Part shown: positions 4,329 to 59,540 of the stretch, piece after piece
How the letters are laid out: each line of letters opens with the position of its first letter
How positions within the stretch are numbered: the first letter of the stretch is position 1
Assembly: GCF_018977255.1 (NCBI RefSeq)
Contig: NW_024704742.1
Location: forward strand, 68,388,001 to 68,452,000
Direction of reading: 5' to 3'
Origin: Callorhinchus milii
Taxonomy: Eukaryota
Length of the DNA: 64,000 nucleotides
Notes under the pieces: model-generated
The model's input: only the letters and a program-made list of their open reading frames with translations
What the model was told of the DNA's origin: nothing
Databases searched by the model: none
Program-made: the position numbers and the translations under genes

Positions 4329-4402
4329 CTGTATCATCTGTTCTTCCATTGGATAATCTGAAGGAATTCGAATGACTTCCAGCCTGCTTGTATTTTTTAA
4401 AC
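4329..4402 (-). CDS. PTPRA: PTPRA juxtamembrane exon
   Basis: ccag|GTTTAAA...ACAG|gtaggt; 74 nt. Encodes (R)[24 protein letters not shown] versus human [25 protein letters not shown]. Confidence 0.97.
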
Positions 4403-6718: not shown

Positions 6719-6803
6719 CTCAGCATATACAGTACTATAATAATAAATACAATGACCAACAGTGACGAGAGGGCCACCATTACTGCTATAATTGGCATCT
6801 CAT
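6719..6803 (-). CDS. PTPRA: PTPRA transmembrane exon
   Basis: ttgcag|ATGAGATG...CTGAG|gtaagt; 85 nt. Encodes (D)EMPIIAVMVALSSLLVIVFIIIVLYML(R), nearly identical to human DETPIIAVMVALSSLLVIVFIIIVLYMLR. Confidence 0.97.
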
Positions 6804-18594: not shown

Positions 18595-19059
18595 AATAAC
18601 AATAATAATCCTTGCATTTGATATAGCGCCTTATTACTTTTTCGAGATGTCTCCAAGCGCTTCACAGGATACATTGTAAAGTGAATCGACTGTGTATTCT
18701 GTGGGCGAAACGCAGCATCCAATTGTGCACAGAAGTGTCCCACAAACAATTGTGGATTGAGTGAGTGTCCAAATTATTACTTCTTTTAAAAAAAAGGGAT
18801 TATACCCCCGGAAAAGCGATCTGTCAATCGACTAACAAACAGGTTCCTACTGGCTGCTAGGTAAACAGAGGTGTATATGTGTGTGGAGTAAGGAAACTAT
18901 CAAACAACTGAATTTGAATCGTGAACCTTGTTCACCTAAATTGTCCCATACGCACGAGTGTTTGTTTAGTAAGCCCAACGTTTCGCCCCGACCGGGAATC
19001 AAACCCGGGTCCTCTCGCATGTGAGGCGAGCGCTCTAAACACTATACTACAGGACTCCA
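18595..19059 (-). mobile_element. tRNA-derived SINE, long subfamily, with a 74-bp insertion (18899-18972)
   Basis: SINE sequence is continuous across the insert (AAGGAAACT|...|GCCCAACG). Confidence 0.87.
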
Positions 19060-19657: not shown

Positions 19658-19678
19658 CTGTGCCTGCAGTTTTGCCAT
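19658..19678 (-). CDS. PTPRA: Candidate 21-nt micro-exon of the PTPRA ectodomain, encoding (D)GKTAGT
   Basis: ctctttttttacag|ATGGCAAAACTGCAGGCACAG|gtaaga. Strong splice sites, frame-preserving (phase 1-1), in the same intron position as the known 27-nt alternative exon of mammalian PTPRA. Confidence 0.65.
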
Positions 19679-21920: not shown

Positions 21921-22109
21921 ATGCTGCTCTAGTAAAATTGTGAACCAGATTATCTCATACACACATGTAACTAAATAATTTTGTCAATATCGCAGCCAGA
22001 CTTTATTGATGAGGATGAGTGAGCAGTACTTCAGAATTCTCCAAGCTGAATTCCACCTGGCCACCCCATTCCACTAATCTGTCTTGTCTTCTGTAAGCTT
22101 CTGCTGCCT

Positions 22110-23239
22110 TCGACTATTTGATCTTTCTGTTGCCTTTGACACCGCTGACTACGCCATCCTCATCCATCACCTCTTCTCTCACCTCAACCTTCATGGCTCT
22201 GTCCTTGACTGGTTCAGATCGTACCTCTCACATTGCCTCCACTTCATCTCCACAAATGGCTTCTCCTCTAGCACCCGCACAGTCCTTAGGGATCTATCTT
22301 TGGTCCCCTCCACTTCAATATGTATATGCTCCCTCTTGGTGACATCATCCGCAGACATGGGGTCAACTTCCACATGTATGCAGATGACACCCAACCCTAT
22401 CTCTCTGCCTCCACCCTTGACTCCAGGACCGCTGCTGTCCTGATAGAATGTCTGTCAGACATCAAGTCCTGGATGAGAGCTAACTTTCTTCAGTTAAACG
22501 TCAACAAGACCGAGGCTCTCCTGATTTGCTCCCGTCAGCACCTCCTCACCTCAGGCGCTGACAGTATCATCATCATCTGTGCCATGACGTGCTCAGCCTT
22601 CCCCGACCTCAACAACATCGCCCGGCTCCGCCGCTATTTCACATCACAGGCCGCCGAAACCCTCATACGCAAATTCATTGCATTGAGGCTTGACTATGCA
22701 AACTCCTTGCTTATCGGCCTCCCCAACTCCTCCCTCCATACACTACAGATCATCCAGAACTCTGCAGCCCGAGTTCTCTCCCACACCAGGCTCTGTGACC
22801 CTATCACCCCCATCCTCGCCCGACTCCATTGGCTTCCCATCACACAGAGGATACAGTTCAAGATCCTGGTCCTCACCTTCAAAGCCCTGCATGGTCTTGC
22901 TCCCCCCTACCTCTGCGAACTCCTAACGCCTACCATCCTGCCCGCTCTCTCCTCTCAGCGGTCTCCAGCCTGCTTCACGTCCCACCAATGGCGGGAGGGC
23001 CTTCTGCTACTCTGCCCCCACCAACTCCATCCTACAGTCCCTCTGCCTCGCCACCTCCCTTGCCTCCTTCAAGACCCATCTCAAGACCCACCTTTTCGAC
23101 TGTGCTTTCGATCACCCTGCTTCCCCCCCGCCCTCCACCCTACCCAATCCCGATCCCCAGCTGAAACTCTTGACTGTACAGCGCCTTGCGACGTCCTCCC
23201 GATGTGAAAGGTGCTATACAAATGTAATTTTGTTGTTGT
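22110..23239 (+). mobile_element. 5'-truncated L2 LINE (RT C-terminal half and 3' tail)
   Basis: DLSVAFDT, FHMYADDTQ, RLDYANSLL, LHWLPI..RIQFKIL motifs (ORF 22320..23207); tail GACGTCCTCCCGATGTGAAAGGTGCTATA...(TTG)n. Confidence 0.92.
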
Positions 23240-23922
23240 GCTTTTGTCCATAACTTACCAATAGAAACAAGAAGAATTCAGAATCATTTTACTGCAGTAT
23301 AAATACCATAATTTTCTATCACCAACTGATTATAGATATCATGCTCCCAAAACCCAACTCCAATCACTGAACTTGACAATAATAATATAGTACAATATAT
23401 GGAGACATTTCAACATAAGATTCTATAAAATGTAAGTCCTTTCTTTGAAGAATGCGTGTGGAAACCAAAGAAAATGCACGGGCCTTAGAATGCCCTCCCA
23501 CATGAAAGTCGCTAATCCAATATAATTTTTTTGTTGTTGTAGTCCATGATAAGGAAAAAAGGGGGAAAAGAGCATCTATGAGCATCTATGATATTCTGTT
23601 CCATCTCACCCTTCAATTCATAAAAATCAGATGATATGCTTAAATTCAAATACTAGAAGATCCCGACAAGAAAAATGTTGTTAAGAGAAATGATATGCAA
23701 AAATATTTTATAATTTTATAATAAGCGATTTAATGAAGTTTTCAAATGACAGCTCATTTTTAAAATATCAATTTTCTGGTTTCTTAAATACGAATGCTAC
23801 AATTCCCACTTACCAAAATAGTCAGTTAATTAAAACACTGCATAGCCACAAGAGGATTTACTATTGAAAATCTCTATTGAAAAGTGACTCAAAAGAATGG
23901 GTCAGGGTGAAATTTTCTTTAC

Positions 23923-24198
23923 CTGTTGTGAGGATAGTCGTCTCAGCTGAGGAGTCATTTGCTTTGCCTTGTGCTGTTGTAAATGGCTTGACTGTTGTAT
24001 TAGAAATAATCACTTCTTGATGAGCTAGTGTTGTTCCTGTAGTTACAGCTGTAGTCGAAGTCCCATTGACTGCATTGGTTGTATTCGACATTTGTGAATC
24101 CTCTTCAGTTACATTCAAGGGCAGTCCTGGGCTGGTAGTTGTCTGGATTGTGGAGTTTTCTCCTTGTTTACTTGTGTTGGAGGGGACGGTGGCAAAAA
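23923..24198 (-). CDS. PTPRA: PTPRA Ser/Thr-rich mucin-like ectodomain exon
   Basis: ttttag|TTTTTGCC...ACAG|gtaaag; 276 nt, phase 1-1, in frame with the preceding exon. Encodes (V)FATVPSNTSKQGENST...SAETTILTT with 7 N-x-S/T sequons. Lies within ORF 23861..24220. Confidence 0.9.
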
Positions 24199-25040: not shown

Positions 25041-25110
25041 CTGTTGCTTTGTTTGCTGTGAGACATATCAAACAACTGCTTACTAGTAAAAGCAGAAACC
25101 AGGTATCCAT
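25041..25110 (-). CDS. PTPRA: PTPRA first coding exon (signal peptide); whole exon is 25041-25117 including 7 nt of UTR
   Basis: Minus strand reads ttttcag|CATTGCC ATG...ACA G|gtaagt. Translation MDTWFLLLLVSSCLICLTANKAT closely resembles the human PTPRA N-terminus MDSWFILVLLGSGLICVSANNAT. Ends in phase 1. Confidence 0.93.
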
Positions 25111-26799
25111 GGCAATGCTGAAAATAAAAGTGGAAATTCATCACCTTTTCATACCGAAACATACTTTGCCATAATATCTATAACTACCATTCATCATTAA
25201 GAATAAACAGCAATACGCATATACAAGTATTGATATTAAGATTTTTCCTAAAATTAAGAGACTCAGTTCACATTGAATAAAAAAATTAATGAAAATCCCA
25301 GATGTAATGTTTCTTATGGAAATTATCAGCTCATGCAAGTGACTGAATTAAGAAGAGGCATTTTTTTGGGACATATCGTTTACATCAACAACTTGTATTT
25401 ATATAAAGCCCTTCACGAGGGGTGGCGTCTTGGAGCACTTAACGTTAATTGAGCTTGACACCGAGCCGGGGAAAGAGGTTAGGAAACTGTAGGCACGTTC
25501 GAAGAGGAAGATCTTTTAATGCATGACTGGTTTGCAATACAACACCAGTTTGCCTTTCCTACATATCTCCTTCTATCATTCAACTATTAAAAAGTGTGTT
25601 TTACTGCCACAGCTGATGGTCTCACTTTTAATGCTCTCTTTCTGTCCCACCTCCTCACTCGTTTCTCACCTCACAGCGCCTTGGGACGTCCTCCCGACTT
25701 GAAAGGCGCTCAATAAATGGAATCTTGTTGTTGTTGTTGTTGCTAACTCTAGAGATTGTGAGTGCTGTAATATATCTAGTCCTGGTGACAAAATACAGAA
25801 GCTCAAGTCTTGAAAGGCCAGAGGCGAGAGTGCTAACCACTGCACCAGGCTGACACACAGACCAGTTTATTTGCAGTATTGTTTATCATGATACTGAACT
25901 GTTCAATTTCAGCAACAAACTAACAGAAATTGTGCACCTATATCTGAAGGTTTTTAAAAATATAACCCAGTACTACAGGTAGCTTTCCTTGGCTTAAGAA
26001 AAACACTTCAGAAACTATTTAGATTCAATCTGGTATTGTACATTAGTCAATAAGGGTCCATTTTGAATAGTATAGTCGGTCGTACTCGTCTCCTTAACAT
26101 TAGAAAAAGACATATGTGCTGACAAGTAGAGCTTTGCTTAGTTGCTTAGTTGCTACTAAAAGCGAGGGTGAGCGGGCAAGTATAAATTATGTTTACCACT
26201 TCATAAAGCTCTATTCTCAGATAAAAAGTGACAAAGACAAATTAAAGGAAGGGGCAAAATATGTTCAGAAAGGCCACAATGACGTAAGATGGTCAAAGCT
26301 GACATCTTTAGCTACATATAATGTACTAGGTTACGCGTGGATTATGTAACTGATTGCTGTTCGGAACTTTCCACGTTCCTTATCCAAATATTGACAGAAG
26401 ATTAATTGAATTTGCCTAAGCAAATCTGGTCACACCAGACACCTGAGATCTGGGTTGATATGAAATTTTAATACTGCAGCCTGGTGGAAATTTTTACATT
26501 GAGAAAGCTAAATTTGCAAATAGATTGGTCATCCAAGATGTGATAAGGTGCTACATCAAATGCAAGGATTATTATTATTCACTTTTTGGCTGCTTGTAGG
26601 ACCTTGCTTTGCGCTAATGTGAAGCTCCTGTTAACCCTGCAAGCCAAAGCTCTAACAGGTAGGGTGGTCCTAATAGGACAAGTAGTGAGAAGCTTATCAG
26701 AAAGTGCTCCTAATGGCAAACTATACTGTTTCAGCTGGTTGAGCTCCAACACTCACTTTGGGGTCTCCAAACCTTGTTTCTTACCAACCCATGCTTAAT

Positions 26800-32790: not shown

Positions 32791-33215
32791 GTACCATTCG
32801 GCCCATCGAGTCTGTGCCGGCTCTTTGACAAGAGCAACTGACTTTTATTAACTCCACTCACCAGCTTTCTCCCCATAACCCTGCAAACCCATCTTCCCCA
32901 GATACCTATCCAGTTCTCTCTTAAAAGCTGTTATCGAATCGGACTTCACTGCCCTTTCAGGCGGATCATTCCAAATTCTAACAACTCGCTGAGTGAAAAC
33001 ATTTCTTCTTACCTCCAATCTGCTTCTTTTGGTAGATATCTTAAGACTGTGACCACGAGTCACAGACACACCTACCAGCGGAAACAGCTTTTCCCTATCA
33101 AGCCTGTCGAAACCTTTCATAATCTTGAAGACCTCTATCAGGTCCCCGCGTAACCTTCTCTGCTCTAATGGGAAAAGTCCTAACTTTTCCAGCCTGTCCT
33201 CATAGCTAAAGTTCC
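32791..33215 (-). mobile_element. CR1 LINE 3' fragment
   Basis: SYEDRLEKLGLFPLEQRRLRGDLIEVFKIMKG...FTQRVVRIWN, the CR1 ORF2 C-terminus, plus 3' UTR ATGGGCCGAATGG. Confidence 0.92.
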
Positions 33216-34009
33216 CCACAATGCACAATTTGCTTTCTGAAAAGGGCATGCAAGCCTCTGAATGGGGCTATGTGATTCTTACAAGCCTCCAAAACAGGTC
33301 CACTCTAGCGGCAGCTGGGTACTCAGGGTCATAGCGACTATGAGAGCAATCAAACCTGTGAGTCAGAGCGCATCAGTGATCATACCATCCTGGCCCTAAA
33401 TACTAAACATGGAATCCATAATATGCACATTCAACCAAAGCCATGTGTCACCCAACCAGAGCCATCAAATAGCTACTGGTCCTCTGTGTTCGTTTTGCCT
33501 GATGCCCATTCGTGCCAGCTTGCAATAGCTTGAAGCTTCTATTGCTACTTGTACCCAGTAAGCAGCTTCTCCATGTGCTTGCTGAAAAGGGTTTAGTTTC
33601 AAAAGGCATTTGCAAAAGCCTGATCTGCAATTTCTAATATCTCTTAATGGTATTAAACACATCTGAGAAAAAAAACATTAAAAAGGGATGGAATACCAAG
33701 AACAGAAAGACTGAAAATGGAACTGCATAATAATATAAAAATCTTCATTGCATTTGATATAGCACCTTATCACATCATTGAGACGTCTCAAAGCACTTCA
33801 CAGAATATACTATAAAGTGAATTGACTGTATATTTTGTGGAAGAAACGCAGCAGCCAATTGAGCACAACAGTGTCCCACAATCGAGCAAGAAGAAAATTG
33901 CGCACTTAAGCCTTTGTGCAGAGAACATGGTTAATTTATTTAAACTCAGGCTCAATAATGACAGTCCTAACAAGATAATTGACATTCAAACTAAAACCAA
34001 GAATTGTTC

Positions 34010-42420: not shown

Positions 42421-42911
42421 ACACAAGATCTTTGAACCAAGTTATGCAAGGCAGAGTTTCAACTGATAGAAAGACTTTAAGAGAGAATTTTAAAAGCAGG
42501 AATGGTGTGTGCAGTTTCCCCGCTGAGATTTTAGTATGCAAACGTTCCCCACTGAGACTCTAAATTACTATAAAATATGAAGATGCAGCTTCAGCAGCTC
42601 ACATTCTTGGAATCGGGTCTGGCACAGTCCTATCAACTCTTGTGGTGCTGCTGTATATAATCTAAAGGTGGAATGACAACTCAGTATCTCCCAAAATGTT
42701 GCAAATAGTCGCTTCAAGCATGGAGTAAGTAATCCTCATCATATTCACATCAGCTTACAAGAATTTTAACCAAACCATCACTTGGAGCAAGAGATACATT
42801 TTCTCTTTCACTGTGCTATATTTCAACTCTGGATGGACAAGCAGTGGGAAAGCTTCCCAGATAGCGATATCAATGGTGAACTATACTGTTTTAGCTGTTT
42901 AGACGCCAGCA

Positions 42912-45900
42912 ACAACAACAACTTAGATTTATATAGTGCCCTCCACGCCGGACAGCGTCTCAGAGCGCTTCACAGTAACAGATCCCGGGACCGAGCCAAG
43001 GGGAGGGGGAGGAAGGTGACCAAAGGCGCGGCCGAAAAGAAAGGGAGGGGGGTGCAGAGGAGTGCAGGGACTTGAATACAAGGATGAGGATCTTGAAATC
43101 GATCCTCTCTGGGATAGGCAGCCAGTGCAGTCTGGCAAGGACTGGGGTGATCGGGCAGTGGAGTTTGGTGCGGGTGAGAATGTGGCCACAGAGTTTTGAA
43201 TGATTTGGACTTTATGGATGGTAGTGGATGGGAGACCGGCGAGGAGAGTGTTCGAGTAGTCCAGCCGAGAAGTGACAAAGGTGACCAGGGTTTCAGCAGC
43301 TTTTGGGGAGGGGTATTGGCGGAGACGGGCGATGCGTCGGAGGTGGAAGAAAGTGATGCTGGTGAGGGACCGGATGTGGGGGAGGAAGGATAATTGGGGG
43401 TTGAACCTGACGCCGAGGTTTCATATGGGTTCGGAGAGTTTTAGGTGGAGGTTGGGTAGGTAGAGGTGAGAGCCGTGAGATTTTAGACGTTGACGAGAGC
43501 CAAAGTATGGCTTCCATCTTGTCAACGTTCAGCTGAAGGAAATTTGCGTTCATCCAGCCCTGAGATCTGACAGGCAGGCTGACAGAACATCAGGGGACTG
43601 GGGGTCGCAAAGAGAGGTGGAAAAATAGAGTTGGGTGTCGTCCGCATACATGTGGAAGTGTACCCCATGTCTGCGGATGACATCCTCAAGAGGGAGCATA
43701 TAGATCAGAAAGAGGAGGGGGCCAAGGATGGATCCTTGGGGTAACCCGCAGGTAACCGGGTGAGAGCGGCAGGAGAAGCCGTTTGTGCAGATGTACTGCT
43801 GGTGGTTTGTGAGGTAGGACTCAAACCAGGCGAGTGCGGTCCCACTGAGGTGGATGACAGAGGAAAGGCGGCGGAGAGGTCCAGGAGGACAAGGAGGCAG
43901 AGGGAGCCCTGGTCACAGATAGAGAGGATGTCGTTTGTGACTTTCACAAGCGCAGTCTCTGTACTGTGGGCAGAGCAGAAACCGGACTGGAGGGGCTCGA
44001 AGAGGGAGTGGGAGGAGAGGTGAGCGCGGAGTTGATTGGCAACAACGCGTTCCAGAACTTTAGCGAGGAAGGGCAGGTTAGAAATAGGGTGGTAGTGGCT
44101 GGGGTTTGAGGGATCTAGGGAAGCTTTTTTCAGGAGGGGGGTGATGACAGCAGTCTTGAGGGAGGCAGGGACTGATCCAGAGGAGGGACTGGTTCATGAC
44201 GTCAGCCAGTAGTGGGCAGAGGAGGGGGAGCTGGTGACCAGCAAATTGTTGGGGAGGGGGTCGAGGCAGCAGGTGGTGGGTTTCATGGAGGTGATGGTGG
44301 GTGAGAGGGAGGAGGCAGAGATGGGGAGGAAGGAATGTAGAATGGGAGTGGTGATAGGAGCAGATGATGAGGAGGGTGAGGGGGACAGAGAGGTTTGTAA
44401 CAAGGGGCAGGTGGATGAGGCTGCCTGGCGGATGTTAAGTATTTTAGATGAAACGAAGTCCATGACCTCCTCGCACTTGGCCTTTGATACAAAGATTGAG
44501 GAGGCCTGAGGGGGGCACAGAGGAGGTAGTGGGTGGTGGAAAAAAGGATTTTAGGGTTGTGCTTAGCCTCCAAGATGATGTTGGAGTAGAAGGCCATTTT
44601 TGCACGTGTCAAAGAACGGCAGTAGCTGTGGAGATGCTCGAGCCACAGTTGGCGGTGAACTGTCAGGCCAGTTTTCCACCATCTGCACTCGAGCAGACCG
44701 GTTTGGTTTTTTTGGCGTCGGAGATGGTTGTTGTACCAGGGGCTCGGGTGGGTTTGGAGATGGTCCTGGATTTTAGGGGGACGAGGGAGTTGAAGATGGA
44801 GGAGAGGCGATCATGGAGCAGCTGGACGGCTGCTTCAGGATCTCTGCGGGTGGAAGGCCAGAGGGATAGGATGTTTGATGATGAGAGGGCCTTTGTGAGC
44901 GTCTCAGGGGTAGCCTTTTCCAAGGGTGGTAGAGGATGGTTGAGGGCTTGGTGGAGGAGACAGGGATGTGAGAGGAGAAGGAGATGAAAAAGGTCTGAGA
45001 TGGCCTTGTCCACTATGCTGAGGTTGGAAATGTCAATGCTGTGGGTAATGACGTGGTCAAGTGCATGACCACGGTTGTGGGTGGGTGAGTTTATATGAAG
45101 GGTAAAGTTTAGGGAGGAGGAGGGCAGTGAAATCGGCAGAATTGGTACTGGGGGAGTTTAGGTGGAGGTTGAAATCGCCCATTATGAGTAGGCGCTCAGA
45201 GCAGAGGGACAGGGAAGAGAGGAGAGTGGAGATGTCTGTGTGGAAGGAGCCGGGGGGCTTAGGGGGGCGGTAGACAAGGAGGGTTTTCAATGGGAGAGAG
45301 GGGTGGAAGAGGGTGAGGTGCTCGAAGGAGGAGAAGCAGCCAGAGGAGTAGGGGGTGAGACCAAGCGAGGCTTTGGAAATGAAGGCCACCCCGCCGCCAC
45401 GTTGGTTTGGAAGGGGGGGTGTGGTGGAAGGTGTAGCCTGAAGGGGAGGCTTCCACTAGGGGGATGGGATCATTGGGGCAGAGCCAGGTTTCGGTGAGCC
45501 CAAGAATGTCAAGGTGCTCGTCCAGGATGAGGTCGTGGATGGTGAGGCTTTATTTGAGAGAGAACGGACATTTTGGAGGGAAATGCGGGTGAGTCTGCTG
45601 GAGGGAGGGGAGGGAGGAGAGAGTGGTGTGGAGAGGATTTTGTGGTCTACAGGAGAGATGGTTGTGGAGAATGGTGTGAGTGGAGAGTTGGGGAGGGTAT
45701 GTATGAGGGAAGGGGAAGTTGGGTTTGCCTTAAGGAGGCGGTTTAGCAGAGGGAGTGAGTGATGGGACACGTGGGGTTGCTGCTCTGGGACAGCCAGTGC
45801 CGGGAGCCACGATGGGCCCGGTGGAGGATGCCCAGGCTGGAGCAGAGGGAAGTGGTGATGGAGTCAAGGAGAGAGAGAAGGCGGGGAGGGCGGTGGGAGA

Positions 45901-46023
45901 GAAGGACGGGGGGGAGTAGCGGATTGAGGGGGGTGGGAGGAGAGACATAGAGGGGGGTGGGAGGAGAGACATTTGGAGTGGAGCGGGAAGGGGAGGCTCG
46001 GGATGGGGTGGCAGCCAAAACGT
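42912..46023 (-). mobile_element. Near-full-length, frameshifted L2-clade LINE (APE endonuclease + reverse transcriptase)
   Basis: Motifs in order on the minus strand: LQNVRSLSNK, LGLTETW, SSFEHL, LVYRPPK, IMGDFNLH (APE); YHPISNLPFLAKVLE, QSGF..STETALVKVTNDIL, LLDLSAAF, PQGSILGP, HMYADDTQLY (RT). Ends in a 3' stem-loop and (GTT)n tail. Confidence 0.93.
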
Positions 46024-48959
46024 GCAGTACCCCAACGCACACTCTGGGGTCCCCAAGCCTTGGCTCTTGACAACCGGTGCCTAATACTTTCCGTAATTAG
46101 GAAGCAGGATGCGTCCCTCCAGGGAGAGAGTGTGCATTCCATTCCAAGAATCTATATCTGGGATTTCCACGTGGAGGTGGGATGGATGGAGTTCTCAGCT
46201 TGGTTTGGATTCTCTTAAGTATGGTGATGGCTTTCTGCATGTGCCAGACACCCGGGTGACCCCCCAAAAAATCAATTCAACTCAGATTGATATTGGCTAT
46301 TCTTTACTGTATGGGCACTTTAGGGGTTTGAGTTAGAATTATATGCAGCAGATAATGAAACAAAATGAGTTTGCTTTCCCATAGGAAGGAAATAAATCAG
46401 AGCGGTACTCACATACCTTCCTCACAGAAGCAGTTATAGAATAGAACTGGCTAACGCATAAAAAAGCTACACAGCTTAAACGTTGATACATCTTGCTTGC
46501 ACTTACATAGTCACGTTCACATGAAATAAAATTATGATTGGGACAATGAGAAGGAGAAAGAAGAATAATGAATTTTGACCAAAAGCACAGCATTACAAGA
46601 TATATTTTCAGGAAAGTTTTAAAGTCAGGAAGATGTAGCGAGACTAAGATGTTTGGATGAGATAGTGAATGCTTAGTCACCAAAAAACATGCAATAAGCC
46701 AGAACTGGCTGAGCACCAGCCAGGAGAATAGAGGAGGAAATTGCAGAGAAATGGATGAACTGCACAATGAAAGAATTCGAAAATCTAGAATAGATCTTAT
46801 ACTTGGAAAAGTTATATAGATTCAGAGCCTAGTGTGGGAGAGTTTTGGTGTTAATGGAGAATTCAGTATCAAAGAGGGTGAATCAAGTATATGGTTCAGA
46901 GATGGAAAATGGAGGTCTTAGCAAATGGATTGGATTTAACATTTATAGCAGGGATCATAAATAACATCAAGACTGTGCACTGGCTGATTAAATTGATGAA
47001 TCAAAGATAGTGCTGGGAGGCTATACCAAACCAAAAATTATTTTGTTTTGGTCAGCCAGGTGACTGAAACATGCTTCAAAGTATCCAAAACAAATTGAGA
47101 TTTCCATGCATCCCACTTACACATGGAAATTTCAGAGATAGTTTATTGGAATGCGCACTCTCTCCCTGGAGGGCCGCATCCTGCTTATCTAATTCGAGAA
47201 AGTATTAGTATAAGAACAAAGAAGGTTTGGGGACCCCAAAGTGTGCATTGGGGTACTGCTGGAGTCTAACCATCTAAAACCGCATAGCTTGTCATTGATA
47301 TTGCTGCCTGGCAAGCTTCATAAAAATTGACAAGTAAAATTCGAAGTTATGTTACTGTTCCCTATCTCAAGATACCATCACAACCTCATGTACATTTATT
47401 ATTTGATTGTTAGTCAAAGCAATGCTAATGGAAACAAAGGTTTGGGCTGTTCAGCTGGTTTCTGAAATCAGCTGTACTGCTCTGGTCTGAACTACATTAT
47501 AGTCCTCAAAGATTTTTTTTTGTTTGTCTCAAGATGTTGTCTCACCAAAGCACAGCCGGATACAGAACATACATAGGATGCTATTACAGCTTTCAATTTT
47601 AAACAGGATGCAAGTCCTGGAAATGCCCAGTCTAGATCTCAACATTTCACAATTATTTGCAGAAGCAACTGGTAAACAGTGTTAAGAGCGTACACCCGCA
47701 AAAAAGACTAAATAATAATAATAAAAATCCTTGCATTTGATATAGAACCTTATCACATCATTGAGAGTCTGAAAGTGCTTCACAAAATATACTGTAAAGT
47801 GAATTGACTGAATCAAAATTAAAAATAAATATTAAAATAACTATTAAAAGCAGATATGATAAAAAAATTCCTTGTGATATTAAGCATCAATGTTAAGGGC
47901 CATTAAACACTCATTCAATTTGAAAATGGCACTTTAAGGTTTTATAAAAAAATCTGCATTCTGCAGCCAAACAAATCTTAGATATGTGAAAAAGTTGCAC
48001 AAAGCATAGAATGAATTAACATTTCAGGGATGACAAGCTTGTTAAATGGTCATTTCTGTAGGACTGTGAATTATATTCAAAAAAATATTCGATTCTGAGT
48101 TGTCACAGTGTTATCAGGCTTTAGAGGTGCTTATCACTAATAAGCCATTTTGTGTGCTGTGCTAATATCAGGCAATATTGAATTCCTCAAAGTGAATCAG
48201 ACTATATAGGTGCTTGTTGCAAATGCAAAACAGAGGCCATGTGGAAGAATTTACTCCTGATATCAGGTTACGCAGAAATGAACAATGATAAAGTTAGAGA
48301 GGTGCATACTGCTAAACCAGGATACTAGATGTACTCTGCCATATTACACTTGGCTATATTTAGAAGTAATTTCTACTAAATCAGGCTATTTTACTGGTGC
48401 TCACAAGATTGCTGGTGCTTCAATGAAGAATTAGGCAAGATGCATGGGCCATTGATTCTCTGCAGTCTGAGCTCTAGGTCAAAGCTGGATCAAGTGTAAG
48501 GAATTGTGGTGGTGTAGTTGAGCAGAGCCAGAGTACAAGAAGGCAAATTTCCAAGTCAAATGAGTTTTTAAAGCAGATAGTAAGATCCATGTGGTGAAGA
48601 AAATAGTAATTTTAGTTCAAATATTCCAAACAAAATTGAAAGGATATTTTATATTTGGTATAGCTCCCTTCACTTCAGAAGGACATCCCAAATTGCTTCA
48701 CAGGATTTAATGTAAAGTTCAGTGACTGTGCTTTGTAGGCAAATGCGGAAGTCAATGTGTAATGTGTGTCAGCAGCCACTCAACTGTAGAGGTAGTCAAA
48801 CTCACTAGCCTCATTTCAACTACCCCTTGCTGTTTTCTATGCACACATAATAGAGGGACCCTGACCAGAAACTTTGGCTTATTGTCCCTTCCTTAAACCG
48901 AAGAAGCCAGGACCAATAGCCTCCCCTTACTCCATGGCTAAATCCAACAAACTGAATAT

Positions 48960-51677: not shown

Positions 51678-54124
51678 TAAAAAATAATTTCTGGAAAGAT
51701 TGTTCTGATGTTTCTATACAATTTAAATAAATTATTTCCATTCTCAGTTATTCAAGAAAAGTAGACTGACATTTGAGATGCAGGGGAACCTCGTAACTCC
51801 CAGAAGCCAAGTTATAATTGAAGCGTGAAAAAAGACCACACGGAGAGGTCGCTGCTGACTTAATTTCCTGTGTGCGTGTGCAAGTCGCAGGACAAAATAT
51901 AAGTGAACTCTTCCTGCACAGAATGTAACGTGACTTCAGTGTGACAATTCAGAAGTTGGATCCAGGAAGCTAGTCTGCAGGAGTCAGGTGTACTTTGGTT
52001 GGCACAAATACTATAAGCGAGCTGGGGGTGAATACACATGATTCCCCTATCCGTATTGAACTCCCTTAAAACAATTTTAGATGCAGTGTTCATTTTAATT
52101 GACTTTGAATCCCTTGGATCCATGTTTTGGTCCCTCCTTCAGACAATATGTTAAACAAGGATGCCGGCTGCCTGTCCAGGTGGATGACAAAGATCCCATT
52201 ACACTATTCGAAAAGGGAAGGGAATTTCTCCTTGGGTTCTGGATAAGAATCCCCCAAATAAAATCGGTCATTCATTTCACAGCTGTTTGCAGGCCTTTGA
52301 GATGTATGAAGTGGTTACTGCATTTGCCTACAAACTTTATAGTCACTACACTTTACAGTATATTCTGTGATGTGCCTTGAGTCACTATATCAATTGCAAG
52401 GATTATTATTTTATACAAAGTGGAAATCAGTGAGGAAGACCGGTTTTAAGTCATTGCATGTCTTTGTTTACATTAGAAATAATTGCACATCTAGGGCCCT
52501 TAGGGTTTTGCTTTGCTTGGGTGAAACATGTCTGCATCTGCAAGTATGTGTTGAAATCCTCAAACCTGTCCAGCTTTGCCTTGTGCATCTCCTTACTCAA
52601 TTCAACCTCAGGGAGACTTAGCTTTCCCTCCCCCCCCTCACACACCACCACCACATACACACATCACACACAAAGTGCCTTTAAAAGGGTGAAACCCCAG
52701 TCAATCCACCTTTTGGTCTGTCTAAGATATCTTGGATGACAAATTATTGACCTGAATTGTAACTTTCTCATATCAACAGGTTTTGCAGGTTTCTAAAGAA
52801 CAGTGGAATTGGGAAGATGTATGTTGGCATGGAATTGGCATGATGTATGTTGGTGTGGTGTTGGAAGGATGAGGCTTCAAAAAGTGACGATGAAGTTGGC
52901 AAATGTAAATAGAGGGTGGAGAGAGTTCCAAGGTCCTGTGTACCATTTCAGGTGGACAATAAAGATAAAACTGCTCGACAAGAGAAGGGTGTACTGGCCA
53001 CCAATCCTCCAGATAAAAATTGGTTATTCAATCCTTGCATGTATGTGGAGCACTGCTGTGCACAAATTGGTTGCTACATTCACCTGCAAAGAGTCATTGC
53101 GCTTTACAGAGAAAACCTGAAGTGCTTTGAGAGGTTTCAATGTGATAAGACGATCAATAATAATAATAATCCTTGCATTTGATATAGTGCCTTATCACAT
53201 CTTCGAGATATCTCAAAGTGCTTCACAGAATATACTGTAAAGTGAATTGACTATCTTTTATGAGTGAAATTTAATGATTATTATTAAATATGCCTTATTA
53301 AATTATTAAATTATTAAATATGCCTGTAGTTGTTAAATACAAGTCCATAACAGCATTTAAAGGAGAACTGGATAATATTACAAAAAGATATGAAGAAAGC
53401 AGTCAAAAGGGAATGGGATTAAGAGTATATAGCTCCAGTAGAAAAGCTACCATCAATAGAGATATAGTGGGCCAAACATCTTTCTTTACTATAAACATTG
53501 TATGAAACTTGTCGAAGCAAGAAATAAAAAAATAAACTATGATGAAGCCTGTATATACATTTAAAAAGCCATATAACCTGACATCTCAAGACAGTGGTTC
53601 TCCAGACCTGAAACTTTGTCATCTCAAGGAAAGTGAACGACAAATGTAAATGTAGCCTGAGCACTTCATAATGGGGTATATGCTAACAGGTTTTAAAACT
53701 GCATTATAAGGTCCATCACCATTTTAATTTCAAGTCGATCATAAAAATACTGTGTCAATGCACCCAGGTCTAATAATACTGCATTTGATTTTAATGCTCT
53801 CAATTTTTTAGCTTCAAATACGGCTTTTGTACAAAATTGACTTTGCTCCTGAGGCAATAAACAAGACACCAACAGAACCTCGCCCACAACTAGAATAATT
53901 TGCTTTCTGCCAGCTATAAAATCTCCACTGCACTAAACCTTAAAAGTAGACGTACACATGGCTTTTTTTAAAAAAAGGGCATCAAAATTCCTGTAAATCT
54001 GAAATAACCCTTTCAGTCACAAAATCCCTTTGCTTGTTCCCTGCAGGTTAGGGAATTGTTCAGTGTGCTAATAATTTAGATTGGAAGGTTACAGGAGAAA
54101 GCTTTCAGTTGATCCTCAATATTG

Positions 54125-54515
54125 GAGATGACAGGATTGTTTTCCTTAGAGCAGAGAAGGTTGAGGAGCGATCTAACAGAGGTGTTCAAAATTATGAGGG
54201 TTTTTGATAGAGTAGATATGAAAAAAAATGTTTCCTCTGGCTGGGGTGGGGGATGGGGAACAGAGGCCACAGATTTAAGATAATTTGCAAAAGAACCAGA
54301 AGGGAGTAGAGAATTTGTTTTACCCAGAGTTTTTACGATTGGAATACAATGCCTGTAGCTTTCAAAAGGGAATTGAATACATACTTGAAAAGGGAAAGTT
54401 TGCAAGGCTATGGTGAAAAAGCAGGGAGGTGGGACTAGTTTGAAAAGCTCTTTCAAAGAGCTGGCACAGGCATGATAGGCCAAATGGCCTCCTTCTGTGC
54501 GGTAACATTCTACGA
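54125..54515 (+). mobile_element. CR1 LINE 3' fragment
   Basis: GLFSLEQRRLRSDLTEVFKIMR; 3' end GGCCAAATGGCCTCCTTCTGTGC. Confidence 0.88.
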
Positions 54516-55259
54516 TATTCTTTAAAGGGGGAGTGGTAGAGGAATTTTCTTTAGACTACTGACCATTCACATTCATATGTTCAAAGTTGAACTGTATTAA
54601 GTAAAAGCACTTTAATATCAACATCATTATGTAACATGAAACAATTGACCTGATATTTACTGAACATTCAATTTTTAAAGTGTGACATGCTGCAGAATTG
54701 TCAAATTGTTGTTGATAATCTGTACCACAGTTGCAAATCAAGACAGGAAAGAGACTAACAAAACATTGTTTAATGGTACCTGGTACATGGACGAACTGCA
54801 CAACAGAGCTTTAATTTATTGGGCATTTTGAAACTGAATGGAACAAAGCACAAGTTATTCACATGCCAAGCATGCTAATCCTATGCTTTAGACAATTTTA
54901 TCAACTCTAGTCAATAATTGAACAGGATGTTTTATGATCACAATGTTAATATTCCAATTACAGAATTTATTGATTCAGCACAGGATGCATCAGTAAAGGA
55001 ATCAATTTGTTCATTTTTTAGGCTCCACCTCTGGTAAGCACTCTGAGACAATTCCCCACATGAAGGGCACCATATAAATGCACGTTGTTTCATATCATAT
55101 TCTAAATCAATGCAATTCATGTGATAAATTACTCCACTGCGTTCTCTGATTCACAGGCAGTGACAAGTGGTGTCCCCCACTTGTCAGCATTAAAACGTGC
55201 TCAATAACCTGAATACAGGAACAAAGTGGGCTATTTCCAAAATTGCATGTGACGTTAAA

Positions 55260-55800
55260 ATAGGTGTTGTAAAGCGTGAAGAGAATAGGTGAATAATACA
55301 AAGACAGATTAAACAAGTAGGCAAAACCTTGGCAGATGGGAGTTTCACTTTGTTGTGTGAGGAAGTCCAATTAAGACAAAAAAATAGCAGTTGGGAATAT
55401 GTTCTAAATTGGCAAGTGAGCGCAGAAATCTAGGGGTACTTCATATATCATTAAAATCTAATTTGTAAAAAGAGAAAGCAATCTATAAGGCAAACTGGGT
55501 GCTGGTATATATTACAAGAGATCTGGAAGATAAAAGGAGGTGTTCACCAGTTATATAGAATACTGGTTAAACTTCATTTGGAGCATAGTGTTCAGTTTTG
55601 GATACCCAAACAGATGTAGAATAGACACACTAGCTAAGGAACCGGTGCTGTGATGGTTCACTAGATTAATACTGTTCTTGGGATAAAGGGGTTTAGCTAT
55701 GATGAAAGACTGGATAGACTTGGGTTGTAACCCTCAGAGCAGAGGAAGTGAGTTGATTGAGACATTTAAAATAATGAAACAATTTGACAAGTTGGATTGT
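55260..55800 (+). mobile_element. Old degenerate CR1 RT fragment
   Basis: Residual similarity to CR1 ORF2 (TGGCAGATG..GTTT; CTGGTTA..C..CATTTGGAG.A..GTGTTCAGTTTTGG). Confidence 0.6.
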
Positions 55801-56907
55801 GGCAAACTCCTCCCTTCAGTAGATGGATGCATTACAAGGCTGTGCAATATCTAATAGATGTCGATACTCTTGTTAACACAAAGCAAAATAGATTAAATCA
55901 AAAGCCAAGTCCGTATTTTTGCTTGAACCTCCATGCTAAAATTAAGAAAGAGACCATCTATGCAGTCAAGGTACAGGTATGGAGGGATTTCACGATTAAA
56001 ACATTTAAGTCTCACTTGGATTAGGAAGCATAACCATGCAAAAGCAAACGCCAAGAATTGGGAGTTCTGCCACAGGAAGAGGATGGGTGGAGAGCTATCC
56101 GATAATTTTTCAATTATCGAAATGTCTCTTTTAAACTCAAGCCAATATATAATCTCAGACAATATATTCTGTGAAGTGCTTTGAGAAGCCTCAACGACGT
56201 GATAAGGCACTATATATAATGCAAGGTTTATTAGTATTATTAAGACACAATCTTAACTTCTATCCAGAAGAAGTTTTATGCCAAAAATACATCTGAAGTA
56301 AAATGTAATTTTAAAATTGGTAGCTCCATCCTGATGGTCCATCACAGATTTTTCTATAAAAAATATTGATTTCTTCAACTCTTTCTTTTCAACAATATGA
56401 CCAACAGAAATAAAAAAAAAGGCCTTGCAGTGTTAAGTAGACTTCATTCCATTTTGGGACCAATCTGTACAAATACCAGAGATTCACATAATTCTAGAAA
56501 TGACAGAATAGTTTTGTAGTGGAAAAGACATCTCTCTCATCTTTTCTTGAAGACTGTAATTTCAGTTTAGGATACAGCTCCATAGTGTCAGCTGCCTCTA
56601 GTACCTCACTCATTCTTCATAGTCAACCTAATGCAAGTCTCAGCAGGCGATTCAAATACAAGTGGCCTAATAGCCAAGTTCAACATCCAGCACCATTCAA
56701 CATCTACAGTAAATACTTGCATGTTGCAACAGGGAGAAAATGAGAAGGCAGGTTGGCCTAGAATTATGGAAATTTTTGTCAACATATTGTAAAGTATTAC
56801 ACATTAGTTTTATGCTGCATTTATCTCCATGACTTTACCATAATTTAGAGTAGGATACAATGTCAAGCCACCATGCTGTTTCCAGTTCTCACAAAACTAT
56901 TCCTTAC

Positions 56908-56978
56908 CTTAATCACTGCAACTGCATGTACCATTAAGGGTTAGTTCATCTGGGATCCATAAAATTATCCGAGGATAT
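56908..56978 (-). other. PTPRA: Candidate non-coding 5'-leader exon of PTPRA containing four upstream ATGs
   Basis: tttctgtttatgatttcag|ATATCCTC...GATTAAG|gtaagg. 71 nt of non-repeat sequence with strong splice sites, upstream of the ATG exon on the same strand. Resembles the human PTPRA leader exon as recalled; not aligned computationally. Confidence 0.7.
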
Positions 56979-59540
56979 CTGAAATCATAAACAGAAATAA
57001 TTTGATCATTTTAATTTCCAAAATCTGCAGATAAAAGTAAACTCAAATATAGTAAAGTAACATCCAAAATAAACTTAAATAAATGGTGATTTATCATTAG
57101 ATAAATGATGGAGATGGACAGTCCTACAGAAGTGCGGGAAAGCTGGGCCGTGCAATTTATTGTTGTTGATGTTATTTACGTTAACCTCTCAGTCCCTCTG
57201 ATCTTTCACTCCTTATAAAATGTTACCACCTAACATATACTTGATCTCTTTATTCTTCCTCCCATAACCTTATATTTGTCTACATTAAATTTCAATTGCC
57301 ATTTCTCAACCCAATCCACTAATCTGTCAATTTCTCCCTGAAATTTCTTACAGTCTTCTTCACTGGTAACTTCTCCCTATTTTTGTCTCAACTGTACATT
57401 TAGAAATTATGTCCTTTATACACATGGAACATATGGGCACCTACAAAAGAGCAGATGGGTTTCAGCTAGATGACGTCAAACTCAAAGTTAATGTCAACAG
57501 TATTTCACAAAAAGACATTTAAAAATGAGAAAGGAGCCTTGGATGGATATATTTGTATATAAAAAGACATTGTCTATACCTCATGCTTATCCAAAGAACA
57601 TATATTAAATCTGGCATATAATGAATTTCTTAACAATATACATATAAAACGTGTTGGTTTTGAATAATCTGGAAGTGGATAGATCAGTGGCTTCCTGTGC
57701 GTATTGATTAGAGCACTTGCCTTGCAAACGAATGGGGGTATTGGGTTTGATTCCTGGACGGGGCAAAACCTTAGGCAGGTTTCCTTACGCTACACGCCTC
57801 TGTTTGCCTATACTAAGTAGGAACCTGGTGGTCACTCGATTGGCAGATAGCTTTCCGGAATTAATAATAACTTCAAAATAAATAAACAGGTTACTCAATT
57901 CATGACTGTTTACAGGACACTGTTTATACAGTTGTCCTCAGTTAGTTGCAAATCTTTGTGAAATGAGTTAGGGCAGTGCCAATCCAGGACGAATGGACAT
58001 TGTTCCCAGCACAAATGGTCTTCTAATGGCATTTTCACACATTGTCTGGGACTGTGAAGTGGAGAGAAACAGACAAAGGGGTTGGTGGACCACGTAGTTG
58101 CATCTCTGGCAAGTTAATTTGTTAGACGGTGGATAAATTTATCACATGCATCAAGTTGTTGAGGGGGTCAAATTGCAAAATAAATTTTTTATTATCAACA
58201 TCACTAACCCTCAGATTTTGTTTAAACAAAGGTATTGAATACTGCAAAAATGAAATGGAACAAAATTCCAGAAACACAGCAGGTAACATAATACAGTTAG
58301 ATCACTCTTTCCCAGGCAACAAGTATAGCGCCCTTTAAGCAGGGTTGCGTTTGGAGCACAGAGGCACATCAGCAAGACCCCATTTATCTTCTCTTTCTCC
58401 CACTTCCATCTTGTTTTTTTAATGGAATGATTAGCTTTTACTCTGAAACACTATATATGAAGGATTTAGTATTGAGAAGAAATGGAACATGTCCAACAAT
58501 GATCTCATAGTTGTATTTCATACTTGTAGACCTTTAGTCTACTTAATTGATATCTAATCAATATCATTAAATAACATCTTTGGAGTGGTATACATTAAAA
58601 TCTTTCTTCAGTACATTAATGAACTGATGGGCACACTTTTTACACTTGTTGAATTTAACTCAGTTATCCTTTTGGCCCAGAATCCCTCGATTTTACACTG
58701 TATAACATAAGATTGTCATATCAATCTTGGAATCTGCTTAAATTAACATGCCTCTACATGCTTGTCCCTCGTGCCCTCCTGCTTTTTAAGAGGCAGCGGA
58801 TAGTGGGTTGGGGTGTAAGCAGGTCGGAGCGGTAAGGAGGTGTGAAGGCATGAAGGCATTTGAAGACAAAATGAACAAGTAAAACCCACATATGATATAC
58901 CTAAAAATGTAAAGGATAATGATTCATAAGGAGACAGTCCAGTGAAAGCTGTAAGTTCCAGCCTTCTACATTTTTAATACCTACTTTTCCAAAATGTAAA
59001 CATTCAATTCTTATTTTCTTTTGTGGTGGGGGAGGGGAAAGCAACCACATTACATTTTTTTTCCCGTGGGAAGAGGATTCATTTAATAGTTAGAATAAAC
59101 TTTCAATATTTCGGACTAGCTCTATTCCTTGAAGTTCAAAATCCGTGAACAAATAATTTAATTCCCGGAAGCAATAAATGGCTGTCATTTGGAATGTCTT
59201 CAGACACAGAATTACCCTAAACGTATTTCAAACAGGAGAAACGCTGACCTTTTGTAGATGTAAAATAACCAGAGGTTTATATAATTGTGCACAAATGCCC
59301 TGCATTTGAATTGATCTCATTAGATCAGGCTGGTTGGTTTAAAGGCTCAGTGGTTTATACCTACCACTTCACAAACCAACCACAGAAACAGCGGAAGGTA
59401 TTCATCTCTTCCAATCCGTAACGGTTTCTTTTATCAAATGGGAGTGGCTCAAAATCTCTACTGTGTAACTGCAGTGATAATACCTATATTTCCTTTTCAA
59501 TATTTATTCTAGTAATTTCAAGCACACAAGCAAGATTGAA

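Follow-up and report, generated by a model that had tools for sequence, protein, structure and literature searches.

What a 71-nt exon carrying four ATGs does upstream of the PTPRA start codon in Callorhinchus milii is the question raised by this locus, and since PTPRA activates Src-family kinases, its dose matters. A sequence-only reading had proposed that the exon is a uORF-dense translational-control cassette, deeply and possibly from cartilaginous fish to human conserved. We followed up this proposal within the window (the whole 64,000-nt stretch of DNA that was analysed), in contigs of sequencing runs, in annotated proteins and in published catalogues. A human ORF that starts at the matching AUG is already known from a catalogue; new here are its counterpart in a cartilaginous fish, the dependence of the frame outcome on lineage, and a possible circle. 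In the literature searched, which lies outside subscription papers, 491 papers name PTPRA, and no main text among them mentions it together with uORFs or with ribosome profiling of translation. Nor is PTPRA found in the supplements of PMC7484617 or PMC11719525, or in the main text of bioRxiv 2020.06.29.165878 on hyperconserved leaders.

Results

The exons downstream of the leader (Table 1) encode PTPRA, which gives the identity of the gene. The juxtamembrane piece retrieved 263 proteins, and the named ones among the 120 listed are PTPRA, the rest being unnamed models; the transmembrane exon is identical to its counterpart in two shark proteins. A protein search with the mucin-like exon found no match among 299 candidates. 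The minus-strand segment and its four ATGs are present as the sequence-only reading described them, with tttcag before the acceptor and gtaagg after the donor. Both splice sites are good, but they are not outstanding, as the word "strong" had implied: the pair ranks 19th of 342 candidate pairs under a rough scoring matrix. Acceptors at 57024 and 57123 outscore 56978 with the same donor, and RNA-like contigs use 56978. A coding role for the leader exon in Callorhinchus milii was rejected because all three frames contain stops.

Table 1. PTPRA features in the window; on the minus strand each ATG lies at the higher coordinate (56960, 56949, 56934 and 56927 in the leader exon)
Feature	Positions	Strand	Description
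PTPRA leader exon, non-coding	56908..56978	minus	71 nt, directly 5' of the ATG exon; transcript-like contigs
uORF1 (ATG1)	56946..56960	minus	4 codons, main frame, context tttATGg; stop 11 nt before ATG3, 45 nt before main ATG
uORF2 (ATG2)	56941..56949	minus	2 codons, context cagATGa; stop 6 nt before ATG3
Overlapping uORF start (ATG3)	56908..56934	minus	first 9 codons (MVHAVAVIK) of 44; context ttaATGg; 27 nt before donor
uORF4 (ATG4)	56913..56927	minus	4 codons, main frame, context tacATGc; stop 12 nt before main ATG
PTPRA ATG exon	25041..25117	minus	7-nt leader, main ATG 25110, strong context gccATGg, signal peptide; overlapping uORF runs across
Mucin-like ectodomain exon	23923..24198	minus	276 nt; contains overlapping-uORF stop at 24168
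Ectodomain exon, 21 nt	19658..19678	minus	donor joined back to acceptor 56978 in one contig
Transmembrane-helix exon	6719..6803	minus	downstream PTPRA coding exon
Juxtamembrane exon	4329..4402	minus	downstream PTPRA coding exon

Evidence on junctions came from contigs of four runs (X2, X3, X6 and X7), two from each of two studies, over the region 53500-59400. No run is on record as RNA; the four were treated as RNA because their contigs show splice joins. In all four runs, and hence in both studies, contigs leave the window at 56908 and continue with 30 letters that equal 25088-25117. The leader exon is spliced into PTPRA RNA and joined directly to the ATG exon (56908 to 25117), a junction that the earlier reading had named among the checks on its proposal. 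Contigs of runs X2 and X3 span 56908-56979 with zero differences, the extra base being common to the acceptor. One X2 contig extends 14 letters beyond the leader exon, presumably into an upstream exon; these letters have no exact match in the window and one match with two mismatches, which is at chance level. In run X6, a contig of depth 9 (56197-56937) reads through the donor unspliced and could be pre-mRNA or DNA. The mucin exon is present in 14 of the 15 listed runs. Short contigs with loose ends at 58790-58829 and 55654-55756 (runs X2 and X7) could reflect repeats or unannotated exons.

Given the direct join, ATG3 opens a 44-codon, out-of-frame ORF over the PTPRA start. This ORF was computed exactly as the sequence-only reading had stated it, including the 7 nt that precede the start codon in the ATG exon. 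It starts upstream of the main AUG in another frame and stops past it, as overlapping uORFs by definition do, sharing 101 nt with the main ORF. The length of this overlap is no sign of selection, since an open overlap of 33 codons or so arises in 17% of synonymous recodings. Position -3 is T or C at all four upstream ATGs, and the main ATG has G at both -3 and +4. The description "uORF-dense" is right in that the exon holds four ATGs in 71 nt, but this is only mildly above chance: of all 71-nt window positions, 4.5% contain at least four ATGs, and shuffling the exon 20,000 times gives such a number in 3.5% of cases.

The age of the exon was judged from annotated proteins, mostly predicted models, that read through it, and hence at the protein level rather than by DNA alignment. 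Amniote proteins, human NP_001372242.1 included, share a piece at the end of the exon that features Met, Ala/Val and Ile/Thr-Lys over 9 residues. A pattern search of 394 proteins revealed 9+2 residues before the signal Met in 76 of them (20 distinct 9-mers), carried by placentals, marsupials, turtles, lizards and birds; 15 of the 20 types start with Met and five bird types with Val. The pattern fixed positions 1-3 and admitted only M or V at the start, so these positions cannot count as separate evidence. Species with a different spacing (rabbits and hares, crocodilians, sheep and deer) fall outside the pattern. Placental, marsupial, turtle and lizard models have the start Met 9 codons from the exon end, where birds have Val. 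Marsupial models begin a further 7 codons upstream, with a Met whose position fits ATG1 and which is fused in frame. In 19 of the 20 9-mers, residues 7-8 are compatible with a stop in the frame of ATG4, and the Met-Ile pair of turtles forces one. A profile was built from 12 amniote 9-mers, including one entered manually, and against it MVHAVAVIK takes 16th place among 127,948 windows. When only positions 1-8 are scored, an equally high value is reached by 11 of 6,837 GT-anchored 27-mers. Three open-frame 7-mers from sauropsid models with a start further upstream (turtle, chicken and worm lizard) place the 5' half of the exon 4th of 127,960 windows, with five windows reaching this score.

Electric-ray models P0199 and P0206 (Narcine bancroftii, RefSeq) begin at an upstream Met and read the whole exon in frame, which gives them 30 extra residues. 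The 16-residue core of this extension scores 47 at 56977, against 28 for the runner-up (rank 1 of 127,906 windows), and the end of the extension is consistent with a leader of 7 nt. Given its Lys-Gly and Arg-Asp pairs, neither ATG3 nor ATG4 can be accommodated where they would align, and both ATGs have apparently been lost in the electric ray. The 38 cartilaginous-fish proteins comprise two that lack a signal peptide, 31 that begin at the main Met and five with other extensions; none of the 36 with a signal peptide has the extension of the amniote type. This type was also absent from the frog models examined. Teleost models have a different 9-residue in-frame extension, and in gar the main ATG is preceded by 6 nt. 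The electric-ray N-terminus, searched against protein representatives, matched two, both of them unrelated repeat proteins, and a pattern scan of metagenome contigs gave three loci, none of which resembles the PTPRA locus beyond the pattern.

These comparisons with electric-ray, amniote, marsupial and teleost proteins suggest that the leader exon is homologous to the exon at the same place in reptiles, birds and mammals, and that the exon and its cluster of AUGs near the donor likely date from the jawed-vertebrate ancestor. The proposal that the exon is shared from cartilaginous fish to human is therefore supported by protein-level matches. The picture of a fixed cassette is not: frames and ATGs turn over in birds, electric ray, rabbits, marsupials and crocodilians. 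The leader exon is likely an old, loosely kept brake and not a fixed cassette, because the reading frame that it feeds differs between lineages. Assignment as a conserved-peptide uORF (CPuORF) was rejected, since only the first 9 codons are common, frame and continuation depend on the lineage, and the human PhyloCSF score is listed as -38.74.

Several models depart from these patterns. Many teleost PTPRA models (P0052, P0053, P0058, P0121, P0170 and others) share the 9-residue in-frame extension, which may derive from ATG4. Rabbit and hare models (P0342-P0355) have a 14-residue extension from a new Met, and its residues would fit a one-base deletion that left the old ATG3 out of frame. In fence lizard P0151 and macaque P0275, frame-keeping extra exons between the leader and ATG exons give extensions of 35 and 36 residues, respectively. 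P0183 and P0184, cattle and buffalo models in the PTPRA cluster, are named VPS16 and begin with VPS16 sequence; they are probably fused models of neighbouring genes.

The human counterpart of the fish ORF is c20riboseqorf7, a 60-aa overlapping uORF of PTPRA that is catalogued as translated in the GENCODE Ribo-seq set (PMC10032668, supplementary file 2). From its start 27 nt before the donor it continues into a 43-nt exon, crosses the 79-nt ATG exon and takes in 34 nt of the exon that follows. The human and fish ORFs both begin 27 nt before the donor of the homologous exon, use the same frame and end early in the mucin exon; the offset from start to main ATG is 76 nt in human versus 34 nt here, both leaving 1 modulo 3, and the overlaps are 107 and 101 nt. 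They differ in how this frame is reached, which involves the 43-nt exon plus a 6-nt leader in human but the 7-nt leader alone in Callorhinchus milii. The catalogue has a second human ORF, the 34-aa c20norep9, whose start likewise lies 27 nt ahead of this donor; it includes a further exon and terminates short of the main ATG (PMC10032668). The in-frame isoforms NP_001372242.1 and NP_001372233.1 result when the 43-nt exon is skipped, and their extension parallels that of turtle, lizard and marsupial models. Extended isoforms, both these human ones and the RefSeq models of turtle, lizard, bird and marsupial, share the exon end and 9 matching residues with Callorhinchus milii, but they are in frame with the main ORF whereas the fish ORF is not.

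Going by these annotated paths, one human AUG has three outcomes set by splicing, one each for inclusion of the 43-nt exon, use of the further exon and skipping. The two short human uORFs cited in the sequence-only reading are either smaller than the sizes that the catalogue covers or not among its entries. The sequence-only reading had also given a 6-nt human spacing that would yield an in-frame N-terminal extension; such an extension does arise when the 43-nt exon is skipped, but the 43-nt exon, which had been overlooked, restores the overlapping frame. Among the contigs listed for 53500-59400, from which rare forms drop out, none leads to an exon of this type, and the nine weak AG-GT segments of 38-49 nt in the intron include none of 43 nt. 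Minor cassette exons could escape detection among the loose ends listed.

Both human ORFs are labelled "primatomorpha - young" (PMC10032668). The label describes whole-peptide homology to a depth of primates plus colugos; because it stops there, it does not date the start codon, and the present result extends the label rather than contradicting it. The catalogue-"young" human uORF starts at an AUG, and in an exon, that are apparently common with cartilaginous fish. It illustrates how an old start codon can feed a reading frame that is young and specific to a lineage.

The acceptor of the leader exon is also used in a second way. In run X7, one contig leaves the leader exon at 56981, and the next 27 letters equal 19661-19678 followed by 23923-23931. 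With three shared bases, the order is mucin exon, 21-nt exon and acceptor 56978, joined at exact splice sites on the minus strand, so that in this one contig a downstream donor is connected to an upstream acceptor as in exonic circles. The simplest reading of this contig, found among the loose ends listed in one of the four runs, is a predicted 445-nt circle of four PTPRA exons. The main-ATG frame of the predicted circle comprises 126 residues, with signal peptide and ectodomain but without the transmembrane helix. Inverted repeats that flank the predicted circle (57746-57922 and 18601-18898) were rejected as support, because this short interspersed repeat matches 35 times, in both orientations, across the window. 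A human circPTPRA, hsa_circ_0006117 (421 nt), is well described (PMC10242365, PMC6604667, PMC8045402). Both circles come from the 5' part of PTPRA, and the coordinates and length of the human one imply that it contains the ATG and mucin exons. Their ends differ: here, in the one contig, the 71-nt leader exon provides the acceptor and the 21-nt exon the donor of a 445-nt circle.

Discussion

We lean towards a reading in which the leader exon acts as a leaky-scanning brake, where four upstream AUGs in weak contexts lower PTPRA synthesis by catching some of the scanning ribosomes. Most ribosomes would leak through to the main AUG, since all four contexts have a pyrimidine at -3 and the main AUG is strong. 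Initiation at ATG3 would carry ribosomes through 44 codons of another frame and beyond the main AUG, yielding no PTPRA. Initiation at ATG4 would lead to a stop just 12 nt ahead of the main AUG, which is too close. Ribosomes that initiate at ATG1 or ATG2 would stop too near ATG3 to restart there; they could restart at the main AUG 40-45 nt further on, and these short uORFs may let some ribosomes bypass ATG3. The frame outcome would be set in each lineage by the 7-nt leader here, the 6-nt leader in bony vertebrates and the 43-nt cassette exon in human. According to PMC10275272, uORFs that overlap the main ORF out of frame are typically repressive, and by analogy repression of PTPRA is likely. 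Translation of the fish ATG3 ORF is likewise predicted, its human counterpart being catalogued as ribosome-translated. Several observations speak against a brake. Most amniote models make a productive in-frame protein from ATG3, which amounts to no brake; birds have Val at ATG3, the spacing differs in rabbits, crocodilians, sheep and deer, and marsupials fuse ATG1 in frame. The electric-ray model has no place for ATG3 and ATG4, the 33-codon open overlap is of an ordinary length, and the number of ATGs exceeds chance only mildly.

The productive amniote models raise the alternative that ATG3 is an old in-frame start, which adds 11 residues to the signal peptide and was kept in amniotes, and that a one-base shift in cartilaginous fish left a tolerated, weak out-of-frame start. 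The 76 proteins with 20 distinct 9-mers that carry the extension, the curated human NP_001372242.1 and NP_001372233.1 among them, are consistent with this, as is the 9-residue in-frame extension of teleost models; mammalian models that show the preceding residue have Val, Ile or Glu there, which means a purine at -3. We nevertheless consider this alternative unlikely. The extension would be lost with the signal peptide, which blurs any gain at the protein level, none of the 36 cartilaginous-fish proteins with a signal peptide is extended in this way although ATG3 is present in Callorhinchus milii, and the human catalogue, as far as its PTPRA entries go, gives out-of-frame forms as translated. 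The exon could instead be kept for splicing or other RNA-level signals, such as exon definition, protein-binding sites or back-splicing, with the ATGs as by-products of AT-rich conserved sequence. Turnover of ATGs and frame changes among lineages would fit, as would the 4.5% chance rate of four ATGs, the use of the acceptor for back-splicing in one contig and the circular PTPRA RNA described in human. The best-kept letters, however, are those at the ATGs: residue 3 changes to Asn (worm lizard), His (Callorhinchus milii) or Tyr (rabbit and hare), all codons able to keep ATG4. These are three events and only suggestive, and shrew, bird and crocodilian models break the pattern. Folding of the exon is no better than that of shuffles (z +0.89), and human ribosomes are catalogued as translating from the matching AUG, so that maintenance for RNA signals seems improbable too.

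The order of elements, short uORFs followed by an overlapping inhibitory one, matches the delayed-reinitiation leaders of ATF4 and GCN4, and an ATF4-type switch would raise PTPRA translation under eIF2 phosphorylation. We regard this as very improbable. The spacing is very short, with the short uORFs only 6-11 nt from ATG3, the contexts are weak, and human PTPRA shows no stress resistance: in arsenite-treated human cells, its translation efficiency fell to 0.08 (Z -2.25; 18 reads under stress in one cell system), whereas the value for ATF4 was 1.3 (Z 8.16), as tabulated in PMC4383229. Because human PTPRA is not arsenite-resistant, assignment as an ATF4-type stress-induced leader was rejected, on human data only.

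The leaky-scanning brake can be extended to a more ambitious scheme, which we hold to be distinctly unlikely. Here, an AUG as old as the jawed vertebrates would be a splice-controlled frame switch between an in-frame start and an overlapping repressor, with the repressive register reached twice, through the 7-nt leader in cartilaginous fish and the 43-nt cassette in primates, and the back-splice circle would yield a secreted 126-residue ectodomain fragment. If the switch is real, inclusion of the 43-nt exon in human should flip one AUG from productive to repressive.

Two further features of the PTPRA introns were observed. Broken reverse-transcriptase remnants, which we take to be LINE-like from their family likeness, lie at 42900-46100, 22078-23253, 32848-33267 and 54076-54555. 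A contig of run X6 over the intronic stretch 54650-56187 carries 12 differences from the window, mostly in 55015-55415, which suggests a divergent intronic haplotype.
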